A stretch of 64,000 nucleotides of DNA from IMG/VR virus record IMGVR_UViG_3300021256_003716; one strand, given 5' to 3'. Below the pieces are notes generated by a model. The model was not told the origin of the DNA. It worked only from the letters and a program-made list of their open reading frames with translations, and did not search any database. The translations under genes and the position numbers were made by a program. Positions 21,377-64,000 of this stretch are shown here, in pieces. Positions within the stretch are counted from its first letter, which is position 1, and the number at the start of each line of letters is the position of its first letter. This stretch comes from an uncultured virus (IMG/VR IMGVR_UViG_3300021256_003716). Taxonomy: Duplodnaviria > Heunggongvirae > Uroviricota > Caudoviricetes.

Positions 21377-23068
21377 TTACTTTTTGTAAGTATCTAATAT
21401 GTCTTTTAATGTCTTAGGTTGACCAAAATAGAAGCCTTGCATCATATCTACGCCTAAGCTATCTAATACTTTAATTTGGCCCTTTGTTTCAACACCTTCA
21501 GCTATTACTTTACATTTGAGTAAATGTGCGAGTTGAACAATAATATTGACAAATTTTAATTTTTCTTCATCAGTGTCTACATTGCTAGTAAAAGACTTAT
21601 CAATCTTAACAATATCAACATGTAATTTTGTTAAATAACTTAAAGAAGAATATCCTGTACCAAAATCGTCAAGCGCAATCTTGCAGCCTAAAGCTTTTAT
21701 TTTCTTAATATTGGATGAGGCTTCATCCATATGCTTTATATATGATGATTCTGTTATCTCAAATTCAAGATTAGCTGGAGGAAAACTAGCCATATTTATA
21801 GCTGAAATAATATCATCAATCAGGTCCATATCACATAAATGTTTACCAGATAAGTTTACAGCCAAAATATAATTTGGATTGATACTTAAAAGTTCTTTTG
21901 CCTCAATAAGTGCATGCTTTAATACCCAAATATCAATATCACATATTAAGCCTGATTGCTCAGCTATTCCAATAAACTTGGATGGCAATAAGTCGCCCAT
22001 TTTTGATGGCATTCTTAATAGAACTTCATAACCCAATGGAGCATTATTATCTAGCATATATTGAGGCTGGTAGAGTAAATAAAATTTATCTTCTTTCAAA
22101 GCATATTTTATTTGTTTCTCAATATTATATCTGTCTACAATCTCTTTATACATTTCTGCATTAAAGAATAAATACCTATTTTTACCAGATGTTTTAGCTT
22201 TGTACATAGCGGTATCAGCATAACTTAAAAGCTTTTCAATATCTCTAGTATCATTAGGAAATGATGCAATTCCAGCAGAAGTTGTTACATACGATGTAAG
22301 TTCACTACCTGTTTTTATAGAATTAAACATTTCTTTAACAACTTTTGTAGCAATTTTTTTATCATCCGTTTCAATAACCATTGCGAACTCATCACCACCT
22401 AGTCTTGCCAAAGTACACCTATCAAATATTTTTATATCATTCCATTTTGATGCAATAAACTTTAGCAATTCATCTCCAGCCTTATGGCCCAATGTATCAT
22501 TTACAGCCTTAAAGTTATCCAAATCTAGAAAAACAAGATAAAAAGGAGAATCTATAAAGAGCTTATTTTCCATAAGCTTTACGAGTCCCCTTCTATTTAT
22601 ACATCTGGTTAGAGTATCATAATATGCAGCATTGCTAAGAGTACTTTCATTATATTTTGCCCTGAAAATATAAACCTTTAATAAAGTTGTAATAATAATA
22701 TTAAAGATACTATAACTAATACCGATTAAATATAAGTCGTTATGTCGTATTATTCCAAATACGGATAAAACGCATATCTCAGTCAAATCAGCTAGCATTA
22801 GAATATTATAAGTTAACGCATTGCCTAATACTAGAATACATACTGAAGCTACAACTGAAGAGGTTACAGTCCACTTAAATAGGTCACCAGTTAAGATCCT
22901 ATATCCAAATAATGAGAAGTCTGTAAAATTAAAACAGTAGTGCGTTAAAAGCCAAAAAATAGAAATATAGAAAATAGTTATGAAGAATGCAGAAACTTTC
23001 CTTGTTCTTGATGTTTTAGCACCTACCAATTTTTTTAATTCTTTATTTTTCTTAAAAAGGGTTATCAT
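21377..23068 (-). CDS. Membrane-bound GGDEF-EAL protein
   Basis: TM N-terminus; DLDNFKAVNDTLGHKAGD, RLGGDEF, YQPQY, EVLLR, EITES, DDFGTGYSS, KIDKSF, AEGVET, QGFYF. Confidence 0.95.
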   Translation of the reverse strand: MITLFKKNKELKKLVGAKTSRTRKVSAFFITIFYISIFWLLTHYCFNFTDFSLFGYRILTGDLFKWTVTSSVVASVCILVLGNALTYNILMLADLTEICVLSVFGIIRHNDLYLIGISYSIFNIIITTLLKVYIFRAKYNESTLSNAAYYDTLTRCINRRGLVKLMENKLFIDSPFYLVFLDLDNFKAVNDTLGHKAGDELLKFIASKWNDIKIFDRCTLARLGGDEFAMVIETDDKKIATKVVKEMFNSIKTGSELTSYVTTSAGIASFPNDTRDIEKLLSYADTAMYKAKTSGKNRYLFFNAEMYKEIVDRYNIEKQIKYALKEDKFYLLYQPQYMLDNNAPLGYEVLLRMPSKMGDLLPSKFIGIAEQSGLICDIDIWVLKHALIEAKELLSINPNYILAVNLSGKHLCDMDLIDDIISAINMASFPPANLEFEITESSYIKHMDEASSNIKKIKALGCKIALDDFGTGYSSLSYLTKLHVDIVKIDKSFTSNVDTDEEKLKFVNIIVQLAHLLKCKVIAEGVETKGQIKVLDSLGVDMMQGFYFGQPKTLKDILDTYKK

Positions 23069-30150: not shown

Positions 30151-31002
30151 ATGGTAATAAACCACAACATGTCTAGCCTCTTTGCTTCACGCCAAGAAGG
30201 TATTAATACTCAGGCTCTTCAGAAGTCAATGGAAAAACTTGCCTCTGGCGAAAAGATTAACAGAGCAGGTGATGATGCTTCAGGCCTTGCAGTATCTGAA
30301 AAAATGCGTTCTCAGATTAGAGGTCTTAATCAGGCTTCAAGAAATATTGGAGATGCAATTTCTTTTTCTCAGACTGCAGAGGGCTACCTTAGTGAAACTG
30401 TAGATGTTCTTCAGCGTATTCGTGAACTTGCTGTTCAGGCATCTAATGGTGTTTATTCAGATGAAGACCGCGCGCAAATTGCAGTTGAAGTATCACAGCT
30501 TGTAGCGGAAGTAGATAGAATTGCATCAAGTGCGTCTTTCAATGGTATGTCACTTTTGACCGGTCGTTTTTCGCGTGAGTCAGATGTTGTAATGCAGTTC
30601 CAAATCGGAGCAAATTCTGATCAAAATATTCGTGCTTATATTGGTACAATGACTTCTCAGGCATTAGGCCTTACGGGTATTCAGGGAACTGATGAAAAGA
30701 TTTCTATTGCTAGTCCAGATGAAGCAAATGCTACAATTGCAACACTTGATGAAGCTCTTAAAAATGTAAATAAACAGCGTGCTGATTTAGGTGCTTATCA
30801 AAACAGAATGGAATTGGCAGCAAAAGGAATCAACGTTGCTGCAGAAAATACTCAGTCAGCAGAATCTCGCATTCGTGATGCTGATATGGCCTCTGAGATG
30901 GTTGACTTCTCTAAGAATCAAATTATTACGCAAGCGGCAACTAGTATGCTTGCACAGTCTATTTCAATCAATAGAAGTCAGGTATTACAGCTTTTAAGCT
31001 AG
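30151..31002 (+). CDS. flaB: Flagellin, spirochete FlaB-type periplasmic filament core protein
   Basis: [70 protein letters not shown]; 283 aa with no D2/D3 domain; AAGGAG RBS. Confidence 0.97.
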
Positions 31003-34780: not shown

Positions 34781-35857
34781 ATGCGTGCGGTAGAAAAAGC
34801 AGATAATTACATTATTAGATTTCTCTATAAAAAGCAAATTAAAGCTGATGTTATATACGCACTCTTTTTAATTTTTACTACAATAACATCTTTTGCAACA
34901 CAAAATAGTATTTGGTTAAGCTTAGTCTGCGTTTTAGCAACTTCCATAGTAATAGGCTGGACAATTAGGGATCTATTATCAAGAAGGGAAATTAATGCTC
35001 ATAATAGAGCTAAAGTACGACTATTTTATGTTGTATCTCTAATGTTATATTTATTTATGCCATCAGAAATGTTTATGGCTAGTATAATTTTTATTATTCC
35101 TTTTACAATCTTTTTTGTAGATTTGGTAGAAACTTATTGTGGACATGACTCACTTCACTGGCCATATATTTTTCATTTTGCATATGGCAGTATAATATTT
35201 TTAATAGTTAGCATGATAAAGCCATTTATCCCAATAGAAAAGTTTTATGTAACAGATTGGTTTAAGGTTATTTATAATCCTATTGCATTTACAATGATTA
35301 TAGATAATATTGCAGGCGAACTTGTAGATTTAAGAACAGTCTTTAAGGCAAAAGCATTTAGAGATGAAATTATAGCTTGTTATGATGAACTAACAGAAGT
35401 GCATAATAGACATGGCATTGTACAGCTCTGTGACTTAAGTAGAGCAACAGCTATAGCAATGATTGACTTAGACCATTTTAAGTTGGTAAATGATACTTAT
35501 GACCATAATACTGGCGATTTTGTATTAAAAGAGTTTGCAAATAGACTCTCAACTTATGGTGATAACGATAATTTTATTTGTCGCTGGGGTGGTGAAGAGT
35601 TCATTATAATTTCTAATAGTATTGGTGACCTTAAGGATATTTGTGTAAAACTTTTAATTCAAATGCGCAGTGAGCCAATATATTTTACTTTCAAAGACCA
35701 GAATATCGCGCATACACAAACGTTTTCTTGTGGTATAACCGAGATGGACCCAACAAAAGAGTTGGATGAGATGGTTAAGTTGGCGGATATACAGGCATAT
35801 CTATCTAAGGAAAATGGTAGAGACCACGTATATATAAATAATGAAGCTTTATTATAA
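34781..35857 (+). CDS. Membrane-bound diguanylate cyclase (GGEEF)
   Basis: Multiple TM helices; DELTEVHNR, IDLDHFKLVNDTYDHNTGD, RWGGEEF, TFSCG, AD...Y.SKENGRD. Confidence 0.93.
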   Translation: MRAVEKADNYIIRFLYKKQIKADVIYALFLIFTTITSFATQNSIWLSLVCVLATSIVIGWTIRDLLSRREINAHNRAKVRLFYVVSLMLYLFMPSEMFMASIIFIIPFTIFFVDLVETYCGHDSLHWPYIFHFAYGSIIFLIVSMIKPFIPIEKFYVTDWFKVIYNPIAFTMIIDNIAGELVDLRTVFKAKAFRDEIIACYDELTEVHNRHGIVQLCDLSRATAIAMIDLDHFKLVNDTYDHNTGDFVLKEFANRLSTYGDNDNFICRWGGEEFIIISNSIGDLKDICVKLLIQMRSEPIYFTFKDQNIAHTQTFSCGITEMDPTKELDEMVKLADIQAYLSKENGRDHVYINNEALL

Positions 35858-51899: not shown

Positions 51900-53630
51900 A
51901 GCTATTATATTTATTATGAATAAATTTTTTAGAAAAATAAAACAAAAACTATTTCCTGAAAAAAGATATTATTTTATTGCTACTGTTAGACGTGTAAAAG
52001 AGACCTCTTCTAATGGTCAAGAGTTCGAAACAGAGGATACACGTTCTTGGGGTTTTTATAGGTCTAAGAAAAAAGCAATAAAAGCAGTTACTGAAAACTG
52101 GACCGATATGAATGAAATGGGCTATTATCCATGGGCAGTAATTGGCACTTATAATGAAGGCTTAATAGCTCAAGTTTTCGAAGAACCTGAAATGTGGTTT
52201 AAGGAAAGCTATCACCAATTATCAAATGATGAACTTGCTGAAATTGAAAAGAAAGCACCAGAAAAGTTTAAGAAAGACTGTACTATAAACCAAAAAACTG
52301 GAAGAGTTCAGTGGCATTATAATGATGGGTGGCATGATAACTTTGAGGGTTATAGACCTTGTGAGATACCAGAATGGGCAAAAGGATTTAGTGGATGGGC
52401 GCTGTAAAACATAAGTTTATTTTTGGAAAAGACTATTATCTCAATATGATTAAGCCTATTCGAGAAGAATTAGGTAAGCAATTAAATAAAAAAATTGGAG
52501 TTGCTAAAAAGAATAAAGATGGTACATATACTGTAACGCTTGAATATTGGGAAATGGACGCGATAGATAGAATTACTGAAGGAGTATGGAGGCAAAACGA
52601 AGTAAAATGAGCGGAAAAAATAGATATGAACGAGCAAAGAGTAAATGGATTTGTGTTATCTGTGCATTTTTCTTTCTTACTACAATGGTATCAGCTTTTT
52701 GGCTATCTCTTAAAAAGTCACCAGAAGTTAGAGTTTTTGATAATGAATTAAAATCCGTTAAAGAAAAAGTTTCAAATAAGAAAGGAGAACTTTCTGATTT
52801 AGAAAAAAGCATAAAAGAGCTTACTGATCAGAAGACATTCATTGAAAATGAGCTTAAGGCATATGAAGATAGATTTGATCCAATCTCCGGAGAAGCAACT
52901 CAATTTGACGTTGAAGGAAAAATTTATTATTGTTTCAGAAATGAAGCAACATTAAAGTCAACCATAGATAGAGTTTTACAGGCGTCTGGAGTTACATACC
53001 CTAAAGAAGCTGCTTTTGAAATTAATAAGAATTGGTCTAAAACATCTAGCTATCCTTCTGATGTAGCAAATAATATGAGAGTATATAAAATGCCGTATGT
53101 TTATAGAGAAGAAGTTGATATGATGTCAACTAAGATTAAGCATACTTTTATTCTCTATTATAGAGATGCTAGTGGCTATATTTATTATCAAAAGTTTGCG
53201 TATGCTTTTATGAAGGAGTAATATATGTTGAAATATTACCTTATTGTAATGATTATAACATTATTATTCTCAGCTTTTTTTAGCTATAAATGGCTAGATG
53301 AAACTGATAAGTATTTCCAATTTTTTTTGCTTGCGGATGTGTTTGCTAATGCAACTTTTATGTTAGTAATTACAATTATTACTGGTTCAATACATCCTTT
53401 ATTTTTTATTTGTAGCACTTTATCAGGAGTTTTTTTAGCTCTTATAATTATGAGTATAAAAAATATTCTTTGGCATACTAGAATAATTTATGAAGAAGAA
53501 GAACAGGCTAGACTTGAAGCTATAAAAAATAATCCTTATTATCAACAAGCTCATGACGAGGTTAATGACCTTGTAGAAGGTCGTAAAGACCCAAAAATAA
53601 ATTTGAATAAATAAGTTTTAATAGCCTAGA

Positions 53631-55478
53631 TTATTTAATTATTTTTAGCACATCTACTATAGGACCCAGATTATTTGTTCTAATGGCATTGATAAGATTA
53701 TCAATGCCAGTTCTACTAGCAAAGTCGAGGAAGCATTTTTCATTACCTATAAGTATTCTAGCATCTTTATTTTCTAATAAGGCTGAAATAAACTCTCTAA
53801 CTTTTTTTGGTGGCAAATGGTTATTGTTTAGAGTAATATCTACGATTTGTTTTTTTGCTAGCAACTGTAAATAAGTGATAAAGGTATTATCAAAATCATC
53901 AGGGTATCCCGCTGTACCACCACCAGTATTTATTTTTCCAATTCTTGCTGCTACTATCATATATTTATCGAATGATATACCTTTACATGAGAAAACCTTA
54001 TTTTGAGTATATTTTGTATAGCTTAATAAAGCATAAAGGTATGGAGAATGTATTATATCTTCGAAAGTATTATAATCCATGTCTTTTGGGTTGATACAGT
54101 CAGTTGCAACATACTTAATATATTCTTTTATGTATTCTAGTATCTCATCATCTGCACTAACGATTTCTCTACAGATATCGTAAAATGGAATACCCATATC
54201 TTTTATTTTTTTATTATATTGGGCAGATATATCAGAATATATAAATAAGCCTTTTAATTCTTCTCCCTCAAATTCGTATATATCGCTATTTAATAATTTT
54301 ATATCTTCTTCATCAATATACTGTAATAGTCCCTTAGCTTTATAAGCCTCTACAATTTTTCCTAAAGTTACAGCATGTGTGTCTTTATAATAGAGACCTA
54401 ATATGCTTAAATCCGGTAAAAGCGTACATTTATAGAGTGCATTATTTAATTCTTCAGGATCATATTTTATCTTACTTAGAGCTTCATTATCAAGAGACTT
54501 TAATGCTATATCTCTAAAATCCGCAAGGCTATATTTTATTAAATTTCCATTATCATTTACTATAACTTTTAGTACATTAGAAGGGAATCTTATGAGGTCT
54601 CTATATTCGACCATATGGTCCTCTTTGTCCATCCAGTCAAATCTATCTAAACTAAACGCAATCTGCCAAGCCTCTATATATTTACTATTCTCAAACTCTT
54701 TTATTACATAAAGCTTATTTTTTCCAGCATTTGTATAATGATCATAGTATTCCTTTGTTGCGGCCGTACACCATCTTGCTTTATTATAATTTTTGTATTC
54801 ATTTGAAATAAGGTCCTCATAATCGTCAGCATTGCTGACTTTTGATGGGAAAGGCTCTATATGCGACGCAAGTTCTATGTCTCCCTCAAAGGACTTTGGT
54901 ACATAAACCCCCCAATGAGAATCTTCATAAAGAGTATCATATAATTGTTTAGCTTGCTCTGGGTTTACATTATGCTTTTTAGCGTCTCGCTCAGCTTTGA
55001 TTTCTAAAACATTCTTTTCAAAATTATGCCACAAGTCTTTATTATATGGCTCTTCCATTATTTTCTTATATATTGATAAATCTTTTATCCATTGTGACTT
55101 TGCATTTTGTGCAAATACAACTAAAGCGTCCATACTATCAGATGTGATCTTATCAAAAATTACAAATGTTTCAGATTTTCTAATAAGAAGCGCGATAGTT
55201 TCATTTACTGCCCAATTTTTACCAGTAATACGAGTAAGTAAATTAAATAAAGACACATTTATAACATGTAGATGTGTATTATCTACTTCTGTCAATTCCT
55301 CGTAACGCTTTGATACTAAAGTATAAAGCCATTCTGGTAAAAATTTTTTTCCATCTAAAAATCTTAAAATATAGCCAGACCTGATAGCGTCTAATACAGA
55401 TGTCGGTGTAGTAAACTCTTTAGCTTCATTTAGTCTAGTAGCTTTAGCTGATTCATAAATAGCTTCAAAAAGATTCAT
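53631..55478 (-). CDS. Large hypothetical protein, probably virion-associated (WCT motif family)
   Basis: N-terminal LFEA/IYES/LNEA sites; KARWCTA motif seen in large-phage proteins; CTAATT just upstream. Confidence 0.55.
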   Translation of the reverse strand: MNLFEAIYESAKATRLNEAKEFTTPTSVLDAIRSGYILRFLDGKKFLPEWLYTLVSKRYEELTEVDNTHLHVINVSLFNLLTRITGKNWAVNETIALLIRKSETFVIFDKITSDSMDALVVFAQNAKSQWIKDLSIYKKIMEEPYNKDLWHNFEKNVLEIKAERDAKKHNVNPEQAKQLYDTLYEDSHWGVYVPKSFEGDIELASHIEPFPSKVSNADDYEDLISNEYKNYNKARWCTAATKEYYDHYTNAGKNKLYVIKEFENSKYIEAWQIAFSLDRFDWMDKEDHMVEYRDLIRFPSNVLKVIVNDNGNLIKYSLADFRDIALKSLDNEALSKIKYDPEELNNALYKCTLLPDLSILGLYYKDTHAVTLGKIVEAYKAKGLLQYIDEEDIKLLNSDIYEFEGEELKGLFIYSDISAQYNKKIKDMGIPFYDICREIVSADDEILEYIKEYIKYVATDCINPKDMDYNTFEDIIHSPYLYALLSYTKYTQNKVFSCKGISFDKYMIVAARIGKINTGGGTAGYPDDFDNTFITYLQLLAKKQIVDITLNNNHLPPKKVREFISALLENKDARILIGNEKCFLDFASRTGIDNLINAIRTNNLGPIVDVLKIIK

Positions 55479-55579
55479 ATAGAATTAGTTTTTCTTTATT
55501 TTGAATACGCAAGACTAATTTTAGTATATTTTCTAAAATTATTTAGAATATAATATTTTATTGGTTTTGGGTAGTTTGA

Positions 55580-56707
55580 ATGAAGAACGCATTCCAAGCA
55601 TTTGCAATAAATACCTCTGATAATAAAATAAATAAGTTTGTATACAAACAATGGGTAAAGTCAGGATATAAGAATGGCTTTAAGAATTATTTATTAGCGG
55701 AGGAAGAGTGCTATAAAGTTTTTGAGAATCATATTAAAGCAGCCTTTGATTTTGAACAAAGGCCATTAAATAATAATCCCGCAATATCTTATTTCCTTAC
55801 CACTAGAACCCCAGGACCTAATCAAAGAACTAAAAATAATGGTCTTGCTCACTTAAAAATAGTTTATCGTCATATAGATAAAGATGGCTTTTATAATGAA
55901 GATAATTATTATATAAGAGCGCTCTTTCCAAAAAAGGGACGTATTTCTTTTTCTAATAGCCCATATTTTAAGAATCTAACACATTTTATTGCATTTATAG
56001 ATGAAACAACTTTTGCTATAATTGATAATGCTTACTATTATAAAATAATGAAGCTTTGTGATTTAGACAGGTATAATAGAAGATCAATCTTAATATCTGA
56101 ACTAATAAAACAGAATTATGCGGCAATGTTTAATATAGATGGAACTCATGTAACTAATCTTGTTACGGGTAAAAGTACTAGCCATATAAAATATGGTAAT
56201 ATATTAAGTAAAGATTCTTATTTACAATGTGACGGTAAACAGTCTGCAAGCTATCTTGTAATGAATGAATATAGCGCGGAAGCAAAGTACTTACCAATTG
56301 ATGATATTGCAAATCTTTTTGGAAAGAATAATAAAACTTCATTTAAGCAGCATATTTATCGATATCTCACAGAGGTAAAAAAATCAGTTACAGAAAATAT
56401 ACAAATAAAACCTTTTAGTCCTAGAGGTATAAAAGATAGATGGTATATTTTGCCATTAGAGTATTTTAAGAATTTTCAAGATTTAGCTTCTTATAATAAA
56501 AATGCTAAATCAAGAACTTTAACAAATGAAGAGAGACTTCAAAAGGAGTTTGAGCATGCTAATATAATGAAGTATCGAGCATGGCTTAAGCGCCATGAGG
56601 GTCATATGAATCCAAAGTGGAATATGGACGATATAGCTTTTATTATGAATAATAAAAGTTTGGTCAGTTTAGTAACTGACGAATTATATCTTGAAAACTT
56701 TAACTAA
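55580..56707 (+). CDS. Hypothetical basic protein
   Basis: 375-aa ORF; no motif recognised. Confidence 0.65.
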   Translation: MKNAFQAFAINTSDNKINKFVYKQWVKSGYKNGFKNYLLAEEECYKVFENHIKAAFDFEQRPLNNNPAISYFLTTRTPGPNQRTKNNGLAHLKIVYRHIDKDGFYNEDNYYIRALFPKKGRISFSNSPYFKNLTHFIAFIDETTFAIIDNAYYYKIMKLCDLDRYNRRSILISELIKQNYAAMFNIDGTHVTNLVTGKSTSHIKYGNILSKDSYLQCDGKQSASYLVMNEYSAEAKYLPIDDIANLFGKNNKTSFKQHIYRYLTEVKKSVTENIQIKPFSPRGIKDRWYILPLEYFKNFQDLASYNKNAKSRTLTNEERLQKEFEHANIMKYRAWLKRHEGHMNPKWNMDDIAFIMNNKSLVSLVTDELYLENFN

Positions 56708-56744
56708 TTTGTTAATATATTTTTGTACTTAAAAATTATAAGTT

Positions 56745-56853
56745 ACATATTATATTTGTAAATTAGATTAAATAACTAATTAAAAAGTTAAATAACTAAT
56801 TTAATATAAAATTTTTAGTTTTTAGACTTTCCTACTAACTAATTACATATAAT
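56745..56853 (+). promoter_or_regulatory. Stacked promoter region of the tRNA operon
   Basis: ACATATTATA (56745), tandem TTAAATAACTAATT (56768, 56788), TAGACT-19nt-TATAAT (56823-56853) containing CTAATT. Confidence 0.6.
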
Positions 56854-56897
56854 AAATGTTCGGTATGAACATAAAAATTTTTAATAGGAGCAGTAAG

Positions 56898-57029
56898 ATG
56901 CGTACTTGGTTAAATAATTACAATACAAATTCTCGTACAAATGCAAATACAGTAGCATCGTATACATATGATTATACTGCTTCTAATGCAGCCGCTATGG
57001 CCGAAGAATACGATTACGGGGAACGTTGA
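56898..57029 (+). CDS. Attenuator leader peptide of the tRNA array (43 aa)
   Basis: AGGAG RBS at 56886; MRTWLNNYNTNSRTNANTVASYTYDYTASNAAAMAEEYDYGER; stop codon lies inside the antiterminator arm. Confidence 0.8.
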   Translation: MRTWLNNYNTNSRTNANTVASYTYDYTASNAAAMAEEYDYGER

Positions 57030-57083
57030 GCTTTAAATAAATCATAGGATTTTTTAGAGCTCAGTGAAAACTGAGCTTTTTTT
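57026..57083 (+). promoter_or_regulatory. Antiterminator/terminator switch (transcription attenuator)
   Basis: Antiterminator 57026-57064 (17 bp) and terminator AGAGCTCAGT-GAAA-ACTGAGCTTTTTTT 57056-57083 share 57056-57064. Confidence 0.82.
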
Positions 57084-57102
57084 ATTCCCTGGCAAAGTTT
57101 CC

Positions 57103-57176
57103 GGTCAGTTAGGCGAATTGGCTAAGCCACATCCCTCTCAAGGATGTAATTACGGGTCCGAATCCCGTACTGACCT
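57103..57176 (+). tRNA. tRNA-Glu(CTC)
   Basis: GGTCAGT/ACTGACC acceptor; CATCC-CTCTCAA-GGATG; T loop TCCGAAT. Confidence 0.88.
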
Positions 57177-57186
57177 TAGACAATTT

Positions 57187-57259
57187 CGTTCTATCGAATA
57201 GCGGTTAGTTCACACGGCTTTCAACCGTGTAGCGTTGGGTTCAACTCCCACTAGAACGA
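57187..57259 (+). tRNA. tRNA-Glu(TTC)
   Basis: CGTTCTA/TAGAACG; CACGG-CTTTCAA-CCGTG; TTCAACT T loop. Confidence 0.85.
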
Positions 57260-57262
57260 TAT

Positions 57263-57335
57263 GTCCCCATCGTCTAGTTGGTTAGGATAGCACCCTTTCA
57301 AGGTGCAGACTGCGGTTCAAACCCGCATGGGGATA
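57263..57335 (+). tRNA. tRNA-Glu(TTC)
   Basis: GTCCCCA/TGGGGAT; GCACC-CTTTCAA-GGTGC; TGCGG-TTCAAAC-CCGCA. Confidence 0.92.
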
Positions 57336-57345
57336 GAAATATTAT

Positions 57346-57457
57346 GTGCCGTAACCTATCGGCTAGAAAAAGACGTTTGACTGTCTGATTCTTTATGGGC
57401 AGTTTTATACCTAGTAAGTATAAGGCTGAAGAGTGGGTTCGACTCCCCCACGGTACA
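57346..57457 (+). ncRNA. Oversized tRNA-like RNA (112 nt) with G3:U70 and A73
   Basis: GTGCCGT/ACGGTAC acceptor and GGG-TTCGACT-CCC T arm, with an enlarged non-canonical interior. Confidence 0.6.
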
Positions 57458-57562
57458 CTAAAAAAGAGTATTAGGTTGGATGAAATTGGGTTGAGCTCTC
57501 CCAAACTGATTAGAGTAAACGATAAGTAGGTACCTGCTATATCACATCTAACTGGTTTTTAT

Positions 57563-57639
57563 GGGGCATTGGCACAGTGGTCGACTGCACCTGCTTTGCA
57601 AGCAGGATATCACCGTGAGTTCGAATCTCACATGTTCCA
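57563..57639 (+). tRNA. tRNA-Ala(TGC)
   Basis: GGGGCAT/ATGTTCC with G3:U70; CCTGC-TTTGCAA-GCAGG; GTGAG-TTCGAAT-CTCAC. Confidence 0.92.
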
Positions 57640-57719
57640 CTTCGCTGAAAGTCGTAAAGATGATTAGTCGGTAGTCTTTTTGAAACATTTAGGGAATCTT
57701 AATAGTAAATGTTTTATAT

Positions 57720-57792
57720 GGGCTGTGCGATGTGACGGTTTGACATTTCTCGTTTGCACCGAGACTAAGGGGTTCGACTCCCACATGGTCCA
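57720..57792 (+). tRNA. tRNA-Ala(TGC), divergent
   Basis: GGGCTGT/ATGGTCC with G3:U70; TCTCG-TTTGCAC-CGAGA; weak T stem. Confidence 0.75.
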
Positions 57793-58123
57793 CAAAATAG
57801 TTATCATAATACTATAGGTTCTGGAAGCCTTAAAATTATGAATTGGTCATGTAGGTACCTATGAGAGCTTGACAAGTTAAAACCTACAAACTCTAACAAC
57901 GGTTGTAATAAGAGAAAAGAGAGGAGAAGCTGTTACCGTTGACTGAAGGCTTCCATTTCACCAGAGCTTGATGAGTGAATTTGCCATTTACGTTTAAGTT
58001 AAGTTTTTAGTAGTAAGGCAACAGTATAGTTTCCGAGCTTTTAATGGTGAAACGCTCTCAATAGCTAGACTTACTTAATGATTTTTCTTTAAGTCGGTTG
58101 AGAGTGGCTTTTCGAATAATTTC

Positions 58124-58208
58124 GGGTAGGTGCGCCCAATGGTAAGGCAGCGGACTGTAAATCCGTCGCTCGTATCGAGCATTGGGGGTTCGAGTCCCTC
58201 CCTGCCCA
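58124..58208 (+). tRNA. tRNA-Tyr(GTA)
   Basis: GGGTAGG/CCTGCCC; GCGGA-CTGTAAA-TCCGT; long variable arm. Confidence 0.93.
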
Positions 58209-58323
58209 AAGTGAAAAATGATGCTATATACGAAGCAGGCCACTGCACCTTTAGAGTTGCCTGTAATTATAGCAAAACGAACTGACGAAGTGTGCAGCGC
58301 CTTTTTCAGATTAGGAATTTTAT

Positions 58324-58396
58324 GGAGTGTTAGCTCAGTTGGTAGAGCAGACGGCCGTTAACCGTCAGGTCGCAAGTTCGAGCCTTGCACACTCCG
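58324..58396 (+). tRNA. tRNA-Asn(GTT)
   Basis: GGAGTGT/ACACTCC; GACGG-CCGTTAA-CCGTC (C33); G73. Confidence 0.92.
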
Positions 58397-58558
58397 CTAC
58401 ATTACCTTTAAGTCTTCGGATAAAAAGGTTGCTCTTTTACGTAAGTCTAGAGTGGAAAACAACTTTTTCGTGTTGGAAGTGTTAATAAGGCTTGTAAGGA
58501 GATTGAGAGTAACTGCAGCAATGCTTGAAAATCGCCTTCTTGAAAACCGAAATTTTAT

Positions 58559-58631
58559 GGTCTTGTAAGCAGTGGTTTAGCAGGCCCGACTGTCTATCGG
58601 GAGGTCGCCGGTTCGAATCCGGCCAAGACCG
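58559..58631 (+). tRNA. tRNA-Asp(GTC)
   Basis: GGTCTTG/CAAGACC; CCCGA-CTGTCTA-TCGGG; GCCGG-TTCGAAT-CCGGC; weak D stem. Confidence 0.85.
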
Positions 58632-58665
58632 CTAAAAATTGTTGCTCTAATAAAAGTAACATTAT

Positions 58666-58750
58666 GGAATGTTGTGATAATGGTAGTCGGCTTGATTGGA
58701 AGTCAAGTGTACCAGCAATGGTATTACAAGTTCGAGTCTTGTACATTCCG
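58666..58750 (+). tRNA. tRNA-Ser(GGA)
   Basis: GGAATGT/ACATTCC; CTTGA-TTGGAAG-TCAAG; long variable arm. Confidence 0.9.
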
Positions 58751-58899
58751 CGAGCTTTATTGGACAGGTTCAGTAAGTTGAACAAGACTCCTACAAGTCA
58801 TATACTGTAGGTACGTTGTCTGGGTACTTTCCGAGAGGATGAGTCAGAAGGTTATATGCTGACAAAAGGTGAGCCCTTAAAATCACCGACCAAATATTT

Positions 58900-58970
58900 G
58901 CCTCTTTAGTTTAATGGTAGAACTGTGGATTTGTAATCCACTAATAAGTGTTCGATTCACTTAGGAGGCT
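58900..58970 (+). tRNA. tRNA-Thr(TGT)
   Basis: GCCTCTT/AGGAGGC; GTGGA-TTTGTAA-TCCAC; AAGTG-TTCGATT-CACTT. Confidence 0.9.
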
Positions 58971-58989
58971 TAAAATAAATTATTTATTT

Positions 58990-59065
58990 GCCCTTGTCGC
59001 GAAATGGTGTACGCACTGCACTGTCACTGCAGATTCGGCATGGGGTTCGATTCCCCTCAGGGGCG
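58990..59065 (+). tRNA. tRNA-Asp(GTC)
   Basis: GCCCTTG/CAGGGGC; CTGCA-CTGTCAC-TGCAG; GGGG-TTCGATT-CCCC. Confidence 0.88.
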
Positions 59066-59109
59066 CTATTTTTTGGTTATGTGGTAATCCCACATAACTA
59101 ATTAATATT

Positions 59110-60165
59110 ATGAGTGCAAATATTATAAAAGAATGGAAATGTCCCTATTGTAAGGAGATATTTTCGACACGGAGACAAAAAGAAGACCATACAAAAAATT
59201 GTAGTCAAAAGCCAAAATATAGTTGGATTTGCAATTATTGTGGAGAAGAATTTAGTAGTAGACAAAAGCTTGCTGCGCATAAAAAAGAAAATCATTACAA
59301 TGGTACGAGTAATGGCGGCTATGAAAAGAGCATTGAAGCTTTACAAAAAGGTCATATTAAATTTTTACATAAATGTCCTTTTTGTAAAAAAGAATGGGAA
59401 GTAAGTGAATGTACATTTTCTTTACATGTTAATCATTGTAAGGAAAATCCAAATGCTATTAAATATAAAGGACATACTTGGTCTGAAGAACAAAGAAAGG
59501 AAATATCAGAACGCATGAAAAAAGCTCATGCTGAGGGAAGAGCAGGGACTTTTCCTTCAAGAAAAGATAACGCAATGTCTTATCCAGAAAAATGGTTTGT
59601 AGGTGTTGCAGAAAGAGAAGGTATTACAGGCTACGTTCGAGAATTAAAATTTCATAGGTTTTTTCTTGATTTCGCTTGGCCTGAGAAAAAGTTTTGTATT
59701 GAGATTGATGGTGAACAGCATCAGAGATTTGAAGACAGAAAAAGAAATGATCTTGAAAAAGATCGTCTTCTTAAAGAAGATGGCTGGACAGAGCTGAGAG
59801 TATCTTGGTCTTGGTTATGTAAAAATACTCAAAGATTTATAGATGCTGTAAAAAATAACTTAAATTCCTTAAAAGACCTTGAAGTAAATAAACTTTCATT
59901 ATCTTATATTGGTGTTAAAGAGGAACGAAAGTTGATGCTTCAAGAAAAGCGAGCTGAAGCTGAAAAAAATGGTACACTTGCTTCAAATGGCCGTTTAAGC
60001 GCAAATAAGCTCTCTTTTGAAGAGTGGTCTAAAAGGAAAGAACTTATAGAAAAAGCAAATGTCGATTTAACCAAGTTTGGTTGTATTGCCGAATTGGTTA
60101 GAAAAACAGGTCTTACTAAAAGACAAGTTGAGAAAACATTAAAACATTTTTCTATGAGGCCTTAG
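59110..60165 (+). CDS. Putative free-standing homing endonuclease (Zn fingers + NUMOD3-like + DUF559/Vsr-like nuclease)
   Basis: Three CxxC...H zinc fingers; GHTWSEEQRKEISERMK; SYPEKWF..FLDFAW...IEIDGEQH...D.EKD..L...GW..LR. Confidence 0.8.
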   Translation: MSANIIKEWKCPYCKEIFSTRRQKEDHTKNCSQKPKYSWICNYCGEEFSSRQKLAAHKKENHYNGTSNGGYEKSIEALQKGHIKFLHKCPFCKKEWEVSECTFSLHVNHCKENPNAIKYKGHTWSEEQRKEISERMKKAHAEGRAGTFPSRKDNAMSYPEKWFVGVAEREGITGYVRELKFHRFFLDFAWPEKKFCIEIDGEQHQRFEDRKRNDLEKDRLLKEDGWTELRVSWSWLCKNTQRFIDAVKNNLNSLKDLEVNKLSLSYIGVKEERKLMLQEKRAEAEKNGTLASNGRLSANKLSFEEWSKRKELIEKANVDLTKFGCIAELVRKTGLTKRQVEKTLKHFSMRP

Positions 60166-60518
60166 CAGGTTTGACACTGAATAACTTCGCAAAGGAAAAA
60201 CAATTTTTTAGTATATTGATGCTAATATCAATATAAAGCGTGCTAATGTGAGCGTTCCTTAGTCACATAATCTTAATCCCGCTAAGTCAGATACAGCTTA
60301 GCCGCTTTAAGTGCTTTTCGATAATTTTCATGAGTCTAAAATTATTAGCTGGTGGCAACTAATGGCTTAAACCCGATCAGTAAAGTTGCAAGTTTTTGAG
60401 CGTTTTTCTATGATAAAATTGCTCCACTTGGGTAGTAATATCCTTTGTGCCCTTTATCTTTCGGATTGTGGAACAGGAAAGGTCATTGATAAGGTGGAAG
60501 GTTACGCTTATCAGTTTT

Positions 60519-60658
60519 AAGAATGCTGTAGGGTAAGAGTTACTTAGGCTGTTAACCTCGTGGTCGTTGGTTCAAATCCAACCCTGACGCGTCAGCTGCG
60601 TCGGGTAGCTCAGTCTGGTAGAGCACGTAATATGACTTTTACCCGAATTTTGCTTCTT
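60519..60658 (+). ncRNA. Y RNA (YrlA)-like tRNA mimic / circularly permuted tRNA-Asn(GTT)
   Basis: Order is anticodon arm, T arm, loop-closed acceptor stem, D arm, enclosed by GGGTAAGAGTTA/TGACTTTTACCC; flanks shared with 63138-63299. Confidence 0.75.
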
Positions 60659-60662
60659 TTAT

Positions 60663-60750
60663 GGAGTTGTTGGGCAGTTGGTAGCCTTCCTGACTTGAAA
60701 TCAGGCGATTGCCGAAAGGCGTCATGCAGGTTCGAATCCTGTCGGCTCCG
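60663..60750 (+). tRNA. tRNA-Ser(TGA)
   Basis: GGAGTTG/CGGCTCC; CCTGA-CTTGAAA-TCAGG; long variable arm with GAAA loop. Confidence 0.9.
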
Positions 60751-60753
60751 TTA

Positions 60754-60885
60754 GAAAGAGTAATTGCGTAGGGGTTTCCGAACAATTAGAAACTAGGTAG
60801 CGCATGTTTGCTGTCCTTTGAAAGTTTGCTGTAAAAATGACACGAGCGAATTACAGTATCGTAGGTCCAACTCCTACCTCTTTCG
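60754..60885 (+). ncRNA. Oversized tRNA-like RNA (132 nt)
   Basis: GAAAGAG/CTCTTTC acceptor and GTAGG-TCCAACT-CCTAC T arm enclosing about 100 nt of extra structure. Confidence 0.6.
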
Positions 60886-61086
60886 CTATTTTACCTAGTA
60901 ATAGGTTGGAGCCACGGAGGAGTCCTTGAGCTCCGTAAAGCCGGAGTATGAACTTCAGTAATAGGAATAAGTCACAGGCTAAATTGTGAAGACCCCGTAA
61001 CATTTCATACTTATAGAAAGCTAATCACATATTATTATAGAAGGTTTCCAATTTCCTTAAAAAATTGGTGGTGGAAGGAGTTCAAA

Positions 61087-61392
61087 ATGAACGTCTATAC
61101 AAAGATGGTTCAGGCTTTTCCAAGAGATTGTGGTTGGTGTGAATGGCCAGATGGTCATTTAACTGTTAGAATTTTCTATTCTGGTGATTATAGAGATAAA
61201 AAACCTGATTTTAAGCCTTGGTGTATTTTTTCTGTTTGGGGTTGTGATGACACCGGAATGGAAATCAATGAATATGTTTCTGATGATAAAGAAGCAAATG
61301 AATTGATTAATAAATGGCTAGAAATCTATCATGATATGCCAAAGCATCTTTCGATGGAATGGCTAGAAGAAAGAGGATTTAAGCCAGCATAG
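61087..61392 (+). CDS. Hypothetical protein
   Basis: AAGGAG RBS; ACATATTATTATA motif upstream. Confidence 0.7.
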   Translation: MNVYTKMVQAFPRDCGWCEWPDGHLTVRIFYSGDYRDKKPDFKPWCIFSVWGCDDTGMEINEYVSDDKEANELINKWLEIYHDMPKHLSMEWLEERGFKPA

Positions 61393-61402
61393 GGTTCTAT
61401 AA

Positions 61403-61627
61403 GTGATTATTCCAGGTGAAAATTATTATCGAATTATGGGAATGCATAGTCAAATGCAAACCCATAAAGCAAATAATGACGTAAATCCTCCTATACAAGC
61501 TGTTGAGTCAGCAGATAAAGATTCAGGAGCCCCAGATAAGCCAAAGTCTTCTGAATGTAGTATTTGTCCAGATCATGATACAGAACGCTGTAAAACATGT
61601 TTAACTGGTAAACAGATTTATGTTTAG
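61403..61627 (+). CDS. Small Cys-containing hypothetical protein
   Basis: CxxC...CxxC near the C-terminus; start uncertain. Confidence 0.45.
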   Translation: MIIPGENYYRIMGMHSQMQTHKANNDVNPPIQAVESADKDSGAPDKPKSSECSICPDHDTERCKTCLTGKQIYV

Positions 61628-61863
61628 CTAATTAAAATTGTAAGGTACAAGTTATCTTATAAGCCCGAAAAAACAAGAAGATAGCAGATAACGTGTGGCT
61701 AAGCTTGGCGTATATGGGTTAGATTAAGGGTTATAGCTGTTCCAAAGGGTTATCTTAGATATAAATTATAATGATATTTGATGTATTAGATTTATATTGA
61801 AAGAAAAGCTAAGTTTTTATAAAATCTTTCTGGTAACATAGGTTCAATTATACTAATTTATAT

Positions 61864-62529
61864 ATGAATAATATAGTTTTGTATAATTGTGAAAATTGTG
61901 GGAAAGCAGTTTTTATTGGATTTGGTACTAATAGGTTTTGTTCTAGGTCTTGTGCTAATAAAAGAATACATTCAGAAAAAACTAAGTCTAAGATTGCAGC
62001 AAGCGTAAAAGCTACTTATATAGAAAATGGACATATTAGAAAAACTTGTAATATATGTGGAAAAATATTGAATTCTACAAATAAAACCGGTTTTTGTCAT
62101 ATATGCTTGCATAGTGATCCTATTGCAAAAGGCCTTTTGACTAAAAGTTTATCTGCAACACATAAAGGTAAATGTGGTGGTTACCGTAAAGGAAGCGGAC
62201 GAGGAAAGAAAGGAACCTATAAAGGATATTATTGTGACTCAAGTTGGGAATTAGCTTATGTAATTTATAATTTAGATCATAATATAAAATTTGAAAGAAA
62301 TGAAAAACTTTTCCCTTATGAGTTTAAGGGTGAACAACATAATTATAAGCCTGATTTTATTGAGAATGGCATTTATGTTGAAATAAAAGGGTATTTTACT
62401 GAGCAAGTAAAAGCAAAAGAATTTGCTTTTCCATATCAGTTAAAATATATAGATAAAAACACTATAAAGCCATATCTTGAATATGTTGAACAAACATATG
62501 GAAAAGATTTTACAAGGCTTTATGAATAA
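61864..62529 (+). CDS. Putative free-standing homing endonuclease (Zn-binding + PD-(D/E)xK, TnsA-like)
   Basis: CENCG..RFCSRSC, HSEKTKSKI, CNICG, DSSWE, YKPDF...YVEIKG. Confidence 0.8.
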   Translation: MNNIVLYNCENCGKAVFIGFGTNRFCSRSCANKRIHSEKTKSKIAASVKATYIENGHIRKTCNICGKILNSTNKTGFCHICLHSDPIAKGLLTKSLSATHKGKCGGYRKGSGRGKKGTYKGYYCDSSWELAYVIYNLDHNIKFERNEKLFPYEFKGEQHNYKPDFIENGIYVEIKGYFTEQVKAKEFAFPYQLKYIDKNTIKPYLEYVEQTYGKDFTRLYE

Positions 62530-62532
62530 TTT

Positions 62533-62581
62533 GGAGACGTGGTTAAGCTTGGCTTAAGGTGTTCGACTCCTCTCGGTCCTA
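62533..62581 (+). pseudogene. tRNA remnant (5' strand/D loop joined to a T-loop fragment)
   Basis: GGAGACG-TG-GTTAAGCTTGGCTTAAGG followed directly by GTTCGACTC; no anticodon arm; acceptor strands do not pair. Confidence 0.45.
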
Positions 62582-62584
62582 TTT

Positions 62585-62749
62585 ATGAGTAAAGTTTATC
62601 AAGTAAAAGTAATCTATGAATTTGAAATGGAAATAGATGAAGATACTCTTAGCAAAGAACAGCTTAAAGAAGCTGCAAAAGAGCAATTTGATGAAAAACT
62701 CATGAATATTGATGTAGATTCTGAAAGCTTTGAGTACATAGTCAACTAA
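62585..62749 (+). CDS. Small acidic hypothetical protein (54 aa, below ORF-track cutoff)
   Basis: MSKVYQVKVIYEFEMEIDEDTLSKEQLKEAAKEQFDEKLMNIDVDSESFEYIVN. Confidence 0.6.
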   Translation: MSKVYQVKVIYEFEMEIDEDTLSKEQLKEAAKEQFDEKLMNIDVDSESFEYIVN

Positions 62750-62758
62750 TTTAAACCC

Positions 62759-63058
62759 TTGCTAAGGTTAAATTATATTATGACAGTACAAGAGATATTT
62801 GAAATAAAATTAAATTATTTAATTCAACTAACGCGAAATTATAAATCTTTCAGAATTCCTCTTTCATGGTGGGAGTATGCAGCTCCTACAAATAAAGATG
62901 TAAAAGTAGGCAAAAATGGTATGCATGAATATGGTACATCTTTTACATTAGTAAGGTTAGATAAAGAATTTAATGATATTTATACAAAAAAATTAAAAGA
63001 AGCTAATATAAAATTTAGTAAATTATCTAATGGTATTTTATATGAATATCTACCATAA
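62759..63058 (+). CDS. Hypothetical protein
   Basis: ORF track; real start probably ATG 62780. Confidence 0.55.
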   Translation: MLRLNYIMTVQEIFEIKLNYLIQLTRNYKSFRIPLSWWEYAAPTNKDVKVGKNGMHEYGTSFTLVRLDKEFNDIYTKKLKEANIKFSKLSNGILYEYLP

Positions 63059-63062
63059 ATTT

Positions 63063-63135
63063 GCTAACTTAGCTCCAGTGGTAGAGCACATCCATGGTAA
63101 GGATGGGGTCATTGGTTCAAATCCAATAGTTAGCT
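63063..63135 (+). tRNA. tRNA-Thr(GGT)
   Basis: GCTAACT/AGTTAGC; CATCC-ATGGTAA-GGATG; ATTGG-TTCAAAT-CCAAT. Confidence 0.92.
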
Positions 63136-63137
63136 CT

Positions 63138-63299
63138 AAAATTAAATGCTGTAGTAAAAGACTTACTTAGTTTCTATCCATTTTTTAGAAATATAGCTTA
63201 GGGGTCTAGAGCGCTGCTAGTAAATAGCAGAGACCTGGGTTCGAATCCCAGTTTAGTGCGTAAGCACTGTTAGTTTTTTGCGAATTTTGCTTTAATTTT
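63138..63299 (+). ncRNA. Second Y RNA-like tRNA mimic (D, anticodon-like and T arms, no acceptor stem)
   Basis: Same AATGCTGTA...TTACTT / CGAATTTTGC scaffold as 60519-60658 with compensatory stem changes; CTGGG-TTCGAAT-CCCAG T arm. Confidence 0.7.
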
Positions 63300-63381
63300 T
63301 TTAAGGAGAACATCTTTGAAAAAACTTCACATAAGGAAAAATACAGTCTTTTAAGTGAATTAATTCACTAAGGAGATTGTA

Positions 63382-64000
63382 ATGAGTAGAAGTTACAAAA
63401 AACACGGCGGATTTGCAATCTGTTCTTCTAATTCTGATAAGGAAGACAGAACATTGTATCATCGCGCTTTTAGAAGAAAAATAAAAGCTCTTCTTCATGA
63501 AATTTCTCTTATGGATATTAAGAGAGATTTATCTGATTCTATTGGAATGTCAGACTCAGAATTTTCTGATATTTGTATTCTTTGTAAAGTAACAAATTCT
63601 GCAAATGAAGATTTTGATTATGATGATTCAAAAGATTACTGGGTAGAATCTGATGAGCCTTATGTATCTTATCACAAATGTGTAAATCATAAATGCTACT
63701 CAATTGAGCCAAATTCAGCAATAGATAAAATTATAACTAAAGGAATTGATTATAGTTTACCAATGGCTGATAAATGGTCTTGGGGATCAGATGGTGGAAC
63801 ACGCTGGAGAGAAGATCTTTTAACAATCAGAAAAGATTTCGATACTGAAGTTTTTGCAGTTACAAATAATCGTTTTAGGCATCATACAATCTGGGATGAT
63901 TATATTTATAATAAAGAAAGATATTCAAATAAAAATCATCCATCATGGATTGTTACTTTAGCATATAAGGTAGTAAAACCTGATTTTGTTCCTTGTTGGT
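63382..64000 (+). CDS. Hypothetical protein (3'-truncated by window)
   Basis: AAGGAG RBS; MSRSYKKHGGFAICSSNSDKEDRTLYHRAFRRK...; frame appears open to the window end. Confidence 0.7.
   Translation, partial: MSRSYKKHGGFAICSSNSDKEDRTLYHRAFRRKIKALLHEISLMDIKRDLSDSIGMSDSEFSDICILCKVTNSANEDFDYDDSKDYWVESDEPYVSYHKCVNHKCYSIEPNSAIDKIITKGIDYSLPMADKWSWGSDGGTRWREDLLTIRKDFDTEVFAVTNNRFRHHTIWDDYIYNKERYSNKNHPSWIVTLAYKVVKPDFVPCW

Follow-up and report, generated by a model that had tools for sequence, protein, structure and literature searches.

A putative leader-peptide attenuator ahead of a tRNA gene block in a large phage

The DNA analysed here, a stretch of 64,000 nucleotides from an uncultured virus that we call the window, probably carries a ribosome-mediated leader-peptide transcription attenuator that would control a large phage's first block of tRNA genes. 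Five features of the attenuator family are found at this locus: a short 5' leader ORF preceded by a ribosome-binding site, an intrinsic terminator, an antiterminator that excludes it, a stop codon placed in the 5' strand of that antiterminator, and a leader biased towards codons that relate to the product under control (34/43 residues and 30/43 codons).

Enterobacterial leader-peptide attenuators include the multivalent thr and ilvGMEDA systems, along with trp, his, leu and pheA: fast decoding of the leader terminates transcription, and slow decoding lets it read through. Why phages carry tRNA genes has been debated for decades, and to our knowledge the control of these genes is almost unexplored. 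Proposals include compensation for codon usage and an escape from defences that cleave tRNA (PMC10264068).

The leader region is separated by an AT-rich spacer of 190 nt from a 375-codon gene that ends at 56707. Its elements are the following.

56886-56890, plus strand: Shine-Dalgarno sequence AGGAG, by direct reading, with a 7-nt gap to the ATG at 56898
56898-57029, plus strand: leader ORF, 43 codons and a TGA stop (57027-57029)
57024-57066, plus strand: predicted antiterminator hairpin A:B, 14 + 5 bp with a 1-nt bulge, -17.1 kcal/mol, with the stop codon in its 5' arm
57056-57083, plus strand: predicted intrinsic terminator B:C, 10 pairs, GAAA loop, T7, -14.2 kcal/mol

The peptide encoded by the ORF is MRTWLNNYNTNSRTNANTVASYTYDYTASNAAAMAEEYDYGER. 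A first-pass annotation of the window had reported the AGGAG motif, the 43-aa ORF at 56898..57029 and a composition of N7 A7 T6 Y6 S3 E3 D2, or 34/43 residues, and direct reading confirms all of it. A Shine-Dalgarno core at most 20 nt upstream is found for 28 of the 58 ORFs of the window. The TGA stop is rare: besides the leader, it is used by one of the 58 window genes, the rest ending in TAA (48) or TAG (9). No tandem repeat was found inside the leader ORF, and comparison of the peptide with 1.84 billion representatives, like a word-index search, returned no homologue; a peptide without homologues fits a leader rather than a protein family.

The terminator reads AGAGCTCAGT-GAAA-ACTGAGCTTT, followed by a T run to 57083 that ends 20 nt before tRNA-Glu(CTC) at 57103; both the position of this terminator and its distance to the first tRNA had been given correctly by the first-pass annotation. 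The competing hairpin, which it described as 17 bp long at 57026-57064, actually has 19 bp and spans 57024-57066, but the location of the stop codon in its 5' arm and its incompatibility with the terminator both hold. Folding both conformers, a check that the annotation had proposed, gives -17.1 kcal/mol for A:B and -14.2 kcal/mol for B:C, and the two predicted folds overlap at 57056-57066, hence are mutually exclusive.

The antiterminator is the minimum-free-energy structure of 57000-57100 (z = -2.93), and stepwise folding completes it by 57066, before the 3' arm of the terminator exists. Paired with the upstream strand, the 5' arm of the terminator forms a duplex of -13.8 kcal/mol, the best among the 19 terminator-like sites of the window: the 18 others reach -8.0 kcal/mol at best, and the median of all 19 is -3.6. 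Only 5/5000 shuffles of the upstream strand match this pairing. The 5' arm encloses the stop codon (57027-57029), a geometry in which the position of the ribosome, whose footprint size is taken here from general knowledge, could choose the structure.

A pause, or anti-antiterminator (1:2), hairpin was sought in the ORF and in the 5' UTR, and yielded only weak, non-significant pairings (z = -0.73 for the ORF and an 11-bp helix sequestering the ribosome-binding site, z = -0.34 for the 5' UTR). With no significant pause hairpin, termination would need a ribosome close behind the polymerase. Such ribosome-polymerase coupling is absent in some bacteria.

Alternative structures alone do not identify the input of a switch. 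A protein of phage or host origin could select A:B or B:C, as could an uncharged tRNA in the manner of a T-box, and the ORF would then be irrelevant; candidate binding sites for such a protein are the direct repeats TAAATAACTAAT at 56769 and 56789. T-boxes sense uncharged tRNA by direct binding, without an ORF, and regulate synthetase or amino-acid genes; they share with the proposed attenuator the feedback on tRNA status through a choice between terminator and antiterminator. However, region 56700-57100 has no T-box or other Rfam match at E <= 1, and, as regards the stem I, specifier loop and conserved antiterminator sequence of T-boxes, the Rfam matches in 55000-64000 consist of tRNAs and weak unrelated hits. 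Factor-dependent antitermination would also require three coincidences: the good ribosome-binding site, a frame that stays open for 57 codons in DNA of 30% GC, and the stop codon in arm A. We regard it as very improbable.

A ribosome-mediated attenuator, by contrast with a factor-dependent switch, gives a role to the ORF, whose composition can be compared with the tRNA genes that follow.

57103-59066, plus strand: putatively gated tRNA block, Glu(CTC), Glu(TTC) twice, Ala(TGC), Tyr, Asn, Asp, Ser(GGA), Thr(TGT) and Asp, with tRNA-like spacers
60662-60751, plus strand: tRNA-Ser(TGA), behind a homing-endonuclease-like gene
63063-63136, plus strand: tRNA-Thr(GGT), with a tRNA-like element after it at 63191-63254

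Twelve tRNAs are firm, being called by ARAGORN at its default setting and by Rfam: three Glu, one Ala, Tyr, Asn, two Asp, two Ser and two Thr. The first-pass annotation had counted 13; its seven isotypes are the same, but its second Ala (57720-57793) is called only at a lowered ARAGORN threshold. All seven isotypes are present in the first block alone (57103-59066), which is followed by a terminator-like hairpin at 59073-59101 and then by an endonuclease-like gene; the tRNA-Ser(TGA) at 60662-60751 is probably a separate unit.

The element at 63191-63254 reaches 34.9 bits, above the Rfam gathering score of 29, and covers model positions 5-66 only; it is without a full acceptor stem, has a UAA anticodon-like loop after G33, and gets no default ARAGORN call. 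Other parts of the tRNA region deserve mention in their own right. The tRNA-like elements at 57345-57458 and 57720-57793 have good T arms (GGGTTCGACTCCC) and no default tRNA call. A 240-nt spacer, 57825-58068, is represented by contigs of both RNA libraries discussed below at 99-100% identity, and has no Rfam match. A YrlA (Y RNA-like) match at 60530-60648, of full model length, scores 42.4 bits, below its gathering score of 69, and lies immediately ahead of tRNA-Ser(TGA). Homing-endonuclease-like genes at 59110-60165 and 61864-62529 (DUF559/HNH-like and endonuclease-I-like) divide the tRNA region into blocks.

The leader residues N7 A7 T6 Y6 S3 E3 D2 place 34 of its 43 positions in the seven isotypes of the block. 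The background share of these isotypes is 0.44 over the 15,769 residues of the window proteins, which gives a binomial P = 2.9e-6 for a leader that had been singled out post hoc, from many windows, by the first-pass annotation. Sliding a frame of 43 residues over the window proteins never reaches 34 (0/13,333, with a maximum of 32), and among the 77,520 possible sets of seven amino acids, only 7 cover at least 34 leader residues, the tRNA set being one of them. At the level of codons, the anticodons of the block can read, under strict wobble, 30/43 leader codons, versus a proportion of 0.388 in window genes (P = 3.8e-5). The absence from the leader of Lys, Ile and Phe, said by the annotation to be abundant in this genome, is borne out over the 58 window ORFs, where these residues account for 9.5%, 7.9% and 4.6%, or 22% together. 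The architecture and the composition match put forward for this locus are thus both statistically unusual (5/5000 shuffles for the first; 0/13,333 windows and 7/77,520 sets for the second).

The match is uneven. The enrichment is carried mainly by Asn, Ala, Thr and Tyr (26/43), with Glu, Asp and Ser near background: Glu, which has three tRNA genes in the block, has only three leader codons. The leader also contains three CGT Arg codons, and the block is without a tRNA-Arg; four of the seven Ala codons, GCT and GCC, are not strict-wobble matches to the anticodon TGC.

These irregularities bear on another account, in which the leader is a generic sensor of translation rate that responds to any slowing of the ribosome, whether by global stress, a ribosome-targeting defence or antibiotics, and its composition is incidental. 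The geometry requires only that a ribosome reach or miss the stop, Glu, Asp and Ser are at background, and the three Arg codons are unmatched. Moreover, uORF attenuators for general translation stress are known: ribosome position on the uORFs of whiB7/wblC, vmlR and topAI selects between terminator and antiterminator (PMC10274678, PMC9226507, PMC12121999). These uORFs are reported to answer to antibiotics or, in the case of whiB7, to alanine starvation, and to control regulators or resistance genes. The choice by ribosome position on a short uORF is common to them and to the locus described here, which differs from them in that the leader composition mirrors the isotypes of the downstream tRNAs. 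The strength of this match (P = 2.9e-6, 0/13,333 windows, 7/77,520 sets) argues against an incidental composition, as does an unrelated phage, presented below, in which leader composition tracks the tRNA block. We consider a generic sensor unlikely.

The attenuator that we favour would work as follows. Transcription would start upstream of 56779 and run through the 43-codon leader. Once segment B (57053-57066) is made, segment A (57024-57037), which contains the TGA, could pair with it, and this A:B pairing would leave B unavailable for terminator formation with segment C (57070-57079). Since A:B forms first when no ribosome intervenes, the predicted default is read-through into the whole block, starting with tRNA-Glu. 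A fast ribosome that has arrived at the last codons or the stop by the time the polymerase makes B and C would cover A, leaving B:C to form and transcription to end at about 57083. Slow decoding of Asn, Ala, Thr, Tyr, Ser, Glu and Asp codons would instead hold the ribosome upstream of A; with the ribosome thus kept off A, tRNA synthesis would go up, and with ample tRNA it would go down. The net effect would be a negative feedback on tRNA supply. Leader translation, ribosome-polymerase coupling, the direction and size of the effect, and the cause of the shortage, for which the first-pass annotation proposed host anticodon nucleases or starvation, are all things that we infer from the arrangement of the locus.

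The start of such a transcript can be sought in the spacer and at its upstream edge, where the plus strand has three promoter-like sites.

56729-56756, plus strand: candidate promoter TTAAAA-16-TATATT, from a consensus scan
56691-56718, plus strand: second candidate promoter TTGAAA-16-TAATAT, from a consensus scan
56849-56854, plus strand: perfect TATAAT hexamer without a good -35, by direct reading

The TATAAT at 56849 may be the promoter motif mentioned in the first-pass annotation. Contigs from two RNA libraries, belonging to different studies, cover the leader at 99-100% identity: the X10 contig corresponds to 56779-57026, and the X17 contig to 56845-57075, ending inside the 3' arm of the terminator. 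Both begin upstream of the start expected from TATAAT, which is therefore not the sole promoter, if it is a promoter at all. A second X10 contig, 57031-57197, bridges the terminator into the first tRNA-Glu and the start of the second. The two RNA-library runs give no contig cover over 55996-56739 or past 58848, and gaps in cover prove nothing. Such contigs show neither RNA ends nor strand, and RNA libraries can contain DNA; as a weak hint, they fit a transcript that starts upstream of 56779, with 56729-56756 as its candidate promoter, and is partly terminated, partly read through. As for a promoter downstream of the terminator, which the first-pass annotation had named as an alternative source of the tRNAs, the consensus scan detects no promoter-like site on the plus strand between the terminator and 57103.

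Two side observations concern the same spacer. The best promoter-like site of the region, TTTACA-16-TATAAT (11/12), lies on the minus strand at 56762-56735 and faces the 3' end of the upstream gene. The module formed by promoter, UTR and AGGAG at 56835-56890 occurs in X10 and X3 contigs at lower identity, which then diverge (..ATGACTAGAAACGTTAGTTTA), and may belong to a further leader, which could serve a different tRNA operon or come from a related phage; a second copy of the module was sought within the window, and none was found.

The contigs can also be read in favour of an independent short transcript, a small-protein gene or an sRNA with a leaky terminator, in which the hairpin would be a stabiliser or an RNase processing site ahead of the pre-tRNA. 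The X17 contig, 56845-57075, is about the size of a discrete terminated transcript, the gap between the X10 contigs (57026 to 57031) falls at the base of the hairpin, and a stem of 19 bp is long enough for a double-strand RNase. This account nevertheless leaves unexplained both the exclusivity of terminator and antiterminator, matched by 5/5000 shuffles, and the stop codon in arm A; the peptide is of low complexity and has no homologue in 1.84 billion representatives; and no promoter-like site that could serve the tRNAs separately lies between them and the terminator. We thus hold an independent transcript to be quite unlikely.

Relatives of the locus could inform the attenuator reading, and several searches were conducted. 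Comparison of 56700-57110 and 55580-59100 with GenBank phages by blastn gives nothing, or generic tRNA likeness only, and tblastn of the neighbouring 780-aa and 375-aa proteins against the same phages gives no match. Scans of IMG/VR with the 375-aa and 615-aa neighbour proteins return nothing. The 375-aa protein has three homologues in other assemblies (P0002-P0004, 67-71% identity), and scanning IMG/VR with the alignment of all four sequences finds no locus; an alignment scan of genome contigs finds no relative, and a 28-base terminator pattern has no match in viral contigs or genome contigs. The sole metagenome match, L001, is identical to window 52502-57335. A search with a tRNA-Glu 20-mer leads to 4 unrelated loci, all without leaders. 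With NrdD, 6 loci at 51-64% identity are found; tRNAs are present in 1 of the 5 records searched (G005), where a plain promoter precedes them; this record has neither a leader nor homologues of the genes next to the leader in the window.

The stretch or its close variants occur in animal-gut metagenome runs, and among near-identical variants the leader varies at a single position, 57001 C>T, which changes Ala35 to Val. The head of the array (57090-57335) is variable: the variant with Val35 has 195 other bases in place of the first and second tRNA-Glu. L001 (1-148) departs from the window as soon as the third tRNA-Glu ends, and an Ala-like tRNA, 71% alike, comes next.

The window itself is phage-like DNA of 30% GC, with NrdD/NrdG, homing-endonuclease-like and nucleotide-metabolism genes and many ORFs without a family; no structural genes are found in it. 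It encodes a full flagellin with N and C domains (30151-31002), a GGDEF-EAL protein (21377-23068, minus strand) and a second GGDEF protein (34781-35857), and this combination suggests interference with host motility or c-di-GMP signalling. A protein identical to that of ORF 55580-56707 is found on a contig of 940,564 bases, and a 67% homologue on one of 578,814 bases; the element may thus be exceptionally large for a phage.

The searches above having yielded only identical or near-identical copies of the leader, the question whether leader composition and tRNA content vary together, a check that the first-pass annotation listed for related phages, can be put to unrelated ones. A blind sample of 118 IMG/VR loci was pulled by a generic tRNA D-arm motif. 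Each tRNA with at least 120 nt free upstream was eligible, and a match consisted of an ATG-initiated ORF of 12-70 codons together with a terminator at most 45 nt from the tRNA. Matches of ORF plus terminator are found for 10 of the 308 eligible tRNAs in these 118 loci: 7 resemble ordinary gene ends, and the other 3 are paralogues in a single contig, L062, of 67 kb and 30% GC, unrelated to the window. The same pipeline, applied to the window, picks out a leader at the first of the 7 tRNA heads and at none of the others.

Contig L062, reverse-strand starts 5987, 7412 and 8908: three leader ORFs beginning MRTI..., each with a terminator 10-18 nt before a tRNA

Each of the three leaders contains, inside the ORF, a partner for the 5' arm of the terminator. 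Leader A, MRTINKHKHFSKSSKWFSNKSELGTGKVLCLFFEDLTTL (MRTINKHKHFSKSSKWFSNKS..), precedes the block Lys-His-Phe-Lys-Trp-Trp-Lys-His-Phe-Lys; the second, MRTILNILVSSSRSSSGHVIRLCL, precedes Arg-Ser; and the third, MRTINLNMINVNNTLNTVMVLNTLCIRHSEGFHDLTTL (MRTINLNMINVNNTLNT..), precedes Asn-Asn. Every leader is enriched for the amino acids of its own block, with P = 0.0096 for Lys/His/Phe/Trp, 5.2e-4 for Arg/Ser and 0.027 for Asn, and for those of neither of the two other blocks. The true pairing of leaders and blocks scores 2.88, versus at most 0.37 for the other five permutations. Leaders specific to their blocks imply that co-variation of leader and tRNAs exists in at least one other phage: the check comes out in favour of the proposal, with the true pairing the best of 6 permutations, in a single sampled contig.

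Structures are predicted at these leaders as well. The Asn leader has a near copy of the terminator 3' arm inside its ORF (-15.1 kcal/mol, 1/2000 shuffles), and the corresponding arm in the ORF of the Arg/Ser leader reaches -11.5 kcal/mol (86/2000 shuffles). The Lys/His/Phe/Trp leader combines a hairpin inside the ORF with the terminator (z = -6.4 for a fold of the whole region), a layout that it shares with the trp leader.

Searching with the pattern of the L062 family retrieves 3 contigs in all, 2 besides L062, with identical spacing and no further diversity. Leader-gated tRNA blocks are not general: of the 118 sampled loci, L062 is the one contig with a clear case, and the single distant NrdD relative that has tRNAs shows a plain promoter. 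Some incidental traits are common to the two phages. HNH genes divide the tRNA region of L062 too. The leader of the window begins with MRT, like the 3 leaders of L062, a likeness noticed post hoc; the product of the background frequencies of R and T is about 0.002, and the shared start may be due to chance.

It is tempting to go one step further and conjecture that phage tRNA blocks are under feedback in the style of the trp operon: leaders would list the amino acids of their own block, the virus would thereby gauge decoding speed one codon at a time, and exactly those tRNAs in short supply would be replenished, for example after the action of host tRNA-cleaving defences. We find this generalisation possible, and would stop just short of calling it likely. 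Under it, the window would be the seven-amino-acid example, in a giant gut phage, and L062 a recurrence in an unrelated one.

How close the proposed element is to known attenuators can be judged against those of the thr/ilvGMEDA type. Both have a short leader with a ribosome-binding site, translated there and predicted to be so here; an intrinsic terminator directly ahead of the genes under control; a competing antiterminator whose 5' strand is where the stop codon falls; and residues linked to the regulated product. The logic of fast and slow decoding, proposed here, is also common to both. The locus of the window differs in that the regulated genes are tRNA genes instead of biosynthetic enzymes and are borne by a phage, that seven amino acids are spread over 43 codons with no tight run, and that it has no significant 1:2 hairpin, in consequence of which read-through would be the default without translation.

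The first-pass annotation knew of no described attenuator controlling a phage tRNA operon, and the literature search agrees with it: no paper describing leader-peptide attenuation of tRNA genes was found. The 'tRNA operon' passage of PMC3082878 is unrelated. The E. coli pheV gene was considered as a precedent with a Phe-rich leader and rejected: the K-12 sequence has a promoter directly upstream and no such ORF. The departures from the classical attenuators lie in what would be regulated (tRNA genes), in what carries the element (a phage) and in the number of amino acids covered (seven).

If the proposal is true, the supply of phage tRNAs would be a regulated, demand-driven system, and classical attenuation would reach from amino-acid synthesis to tRNA genes. 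The leader described here would also be a compact natural sensor of tRNA availability.
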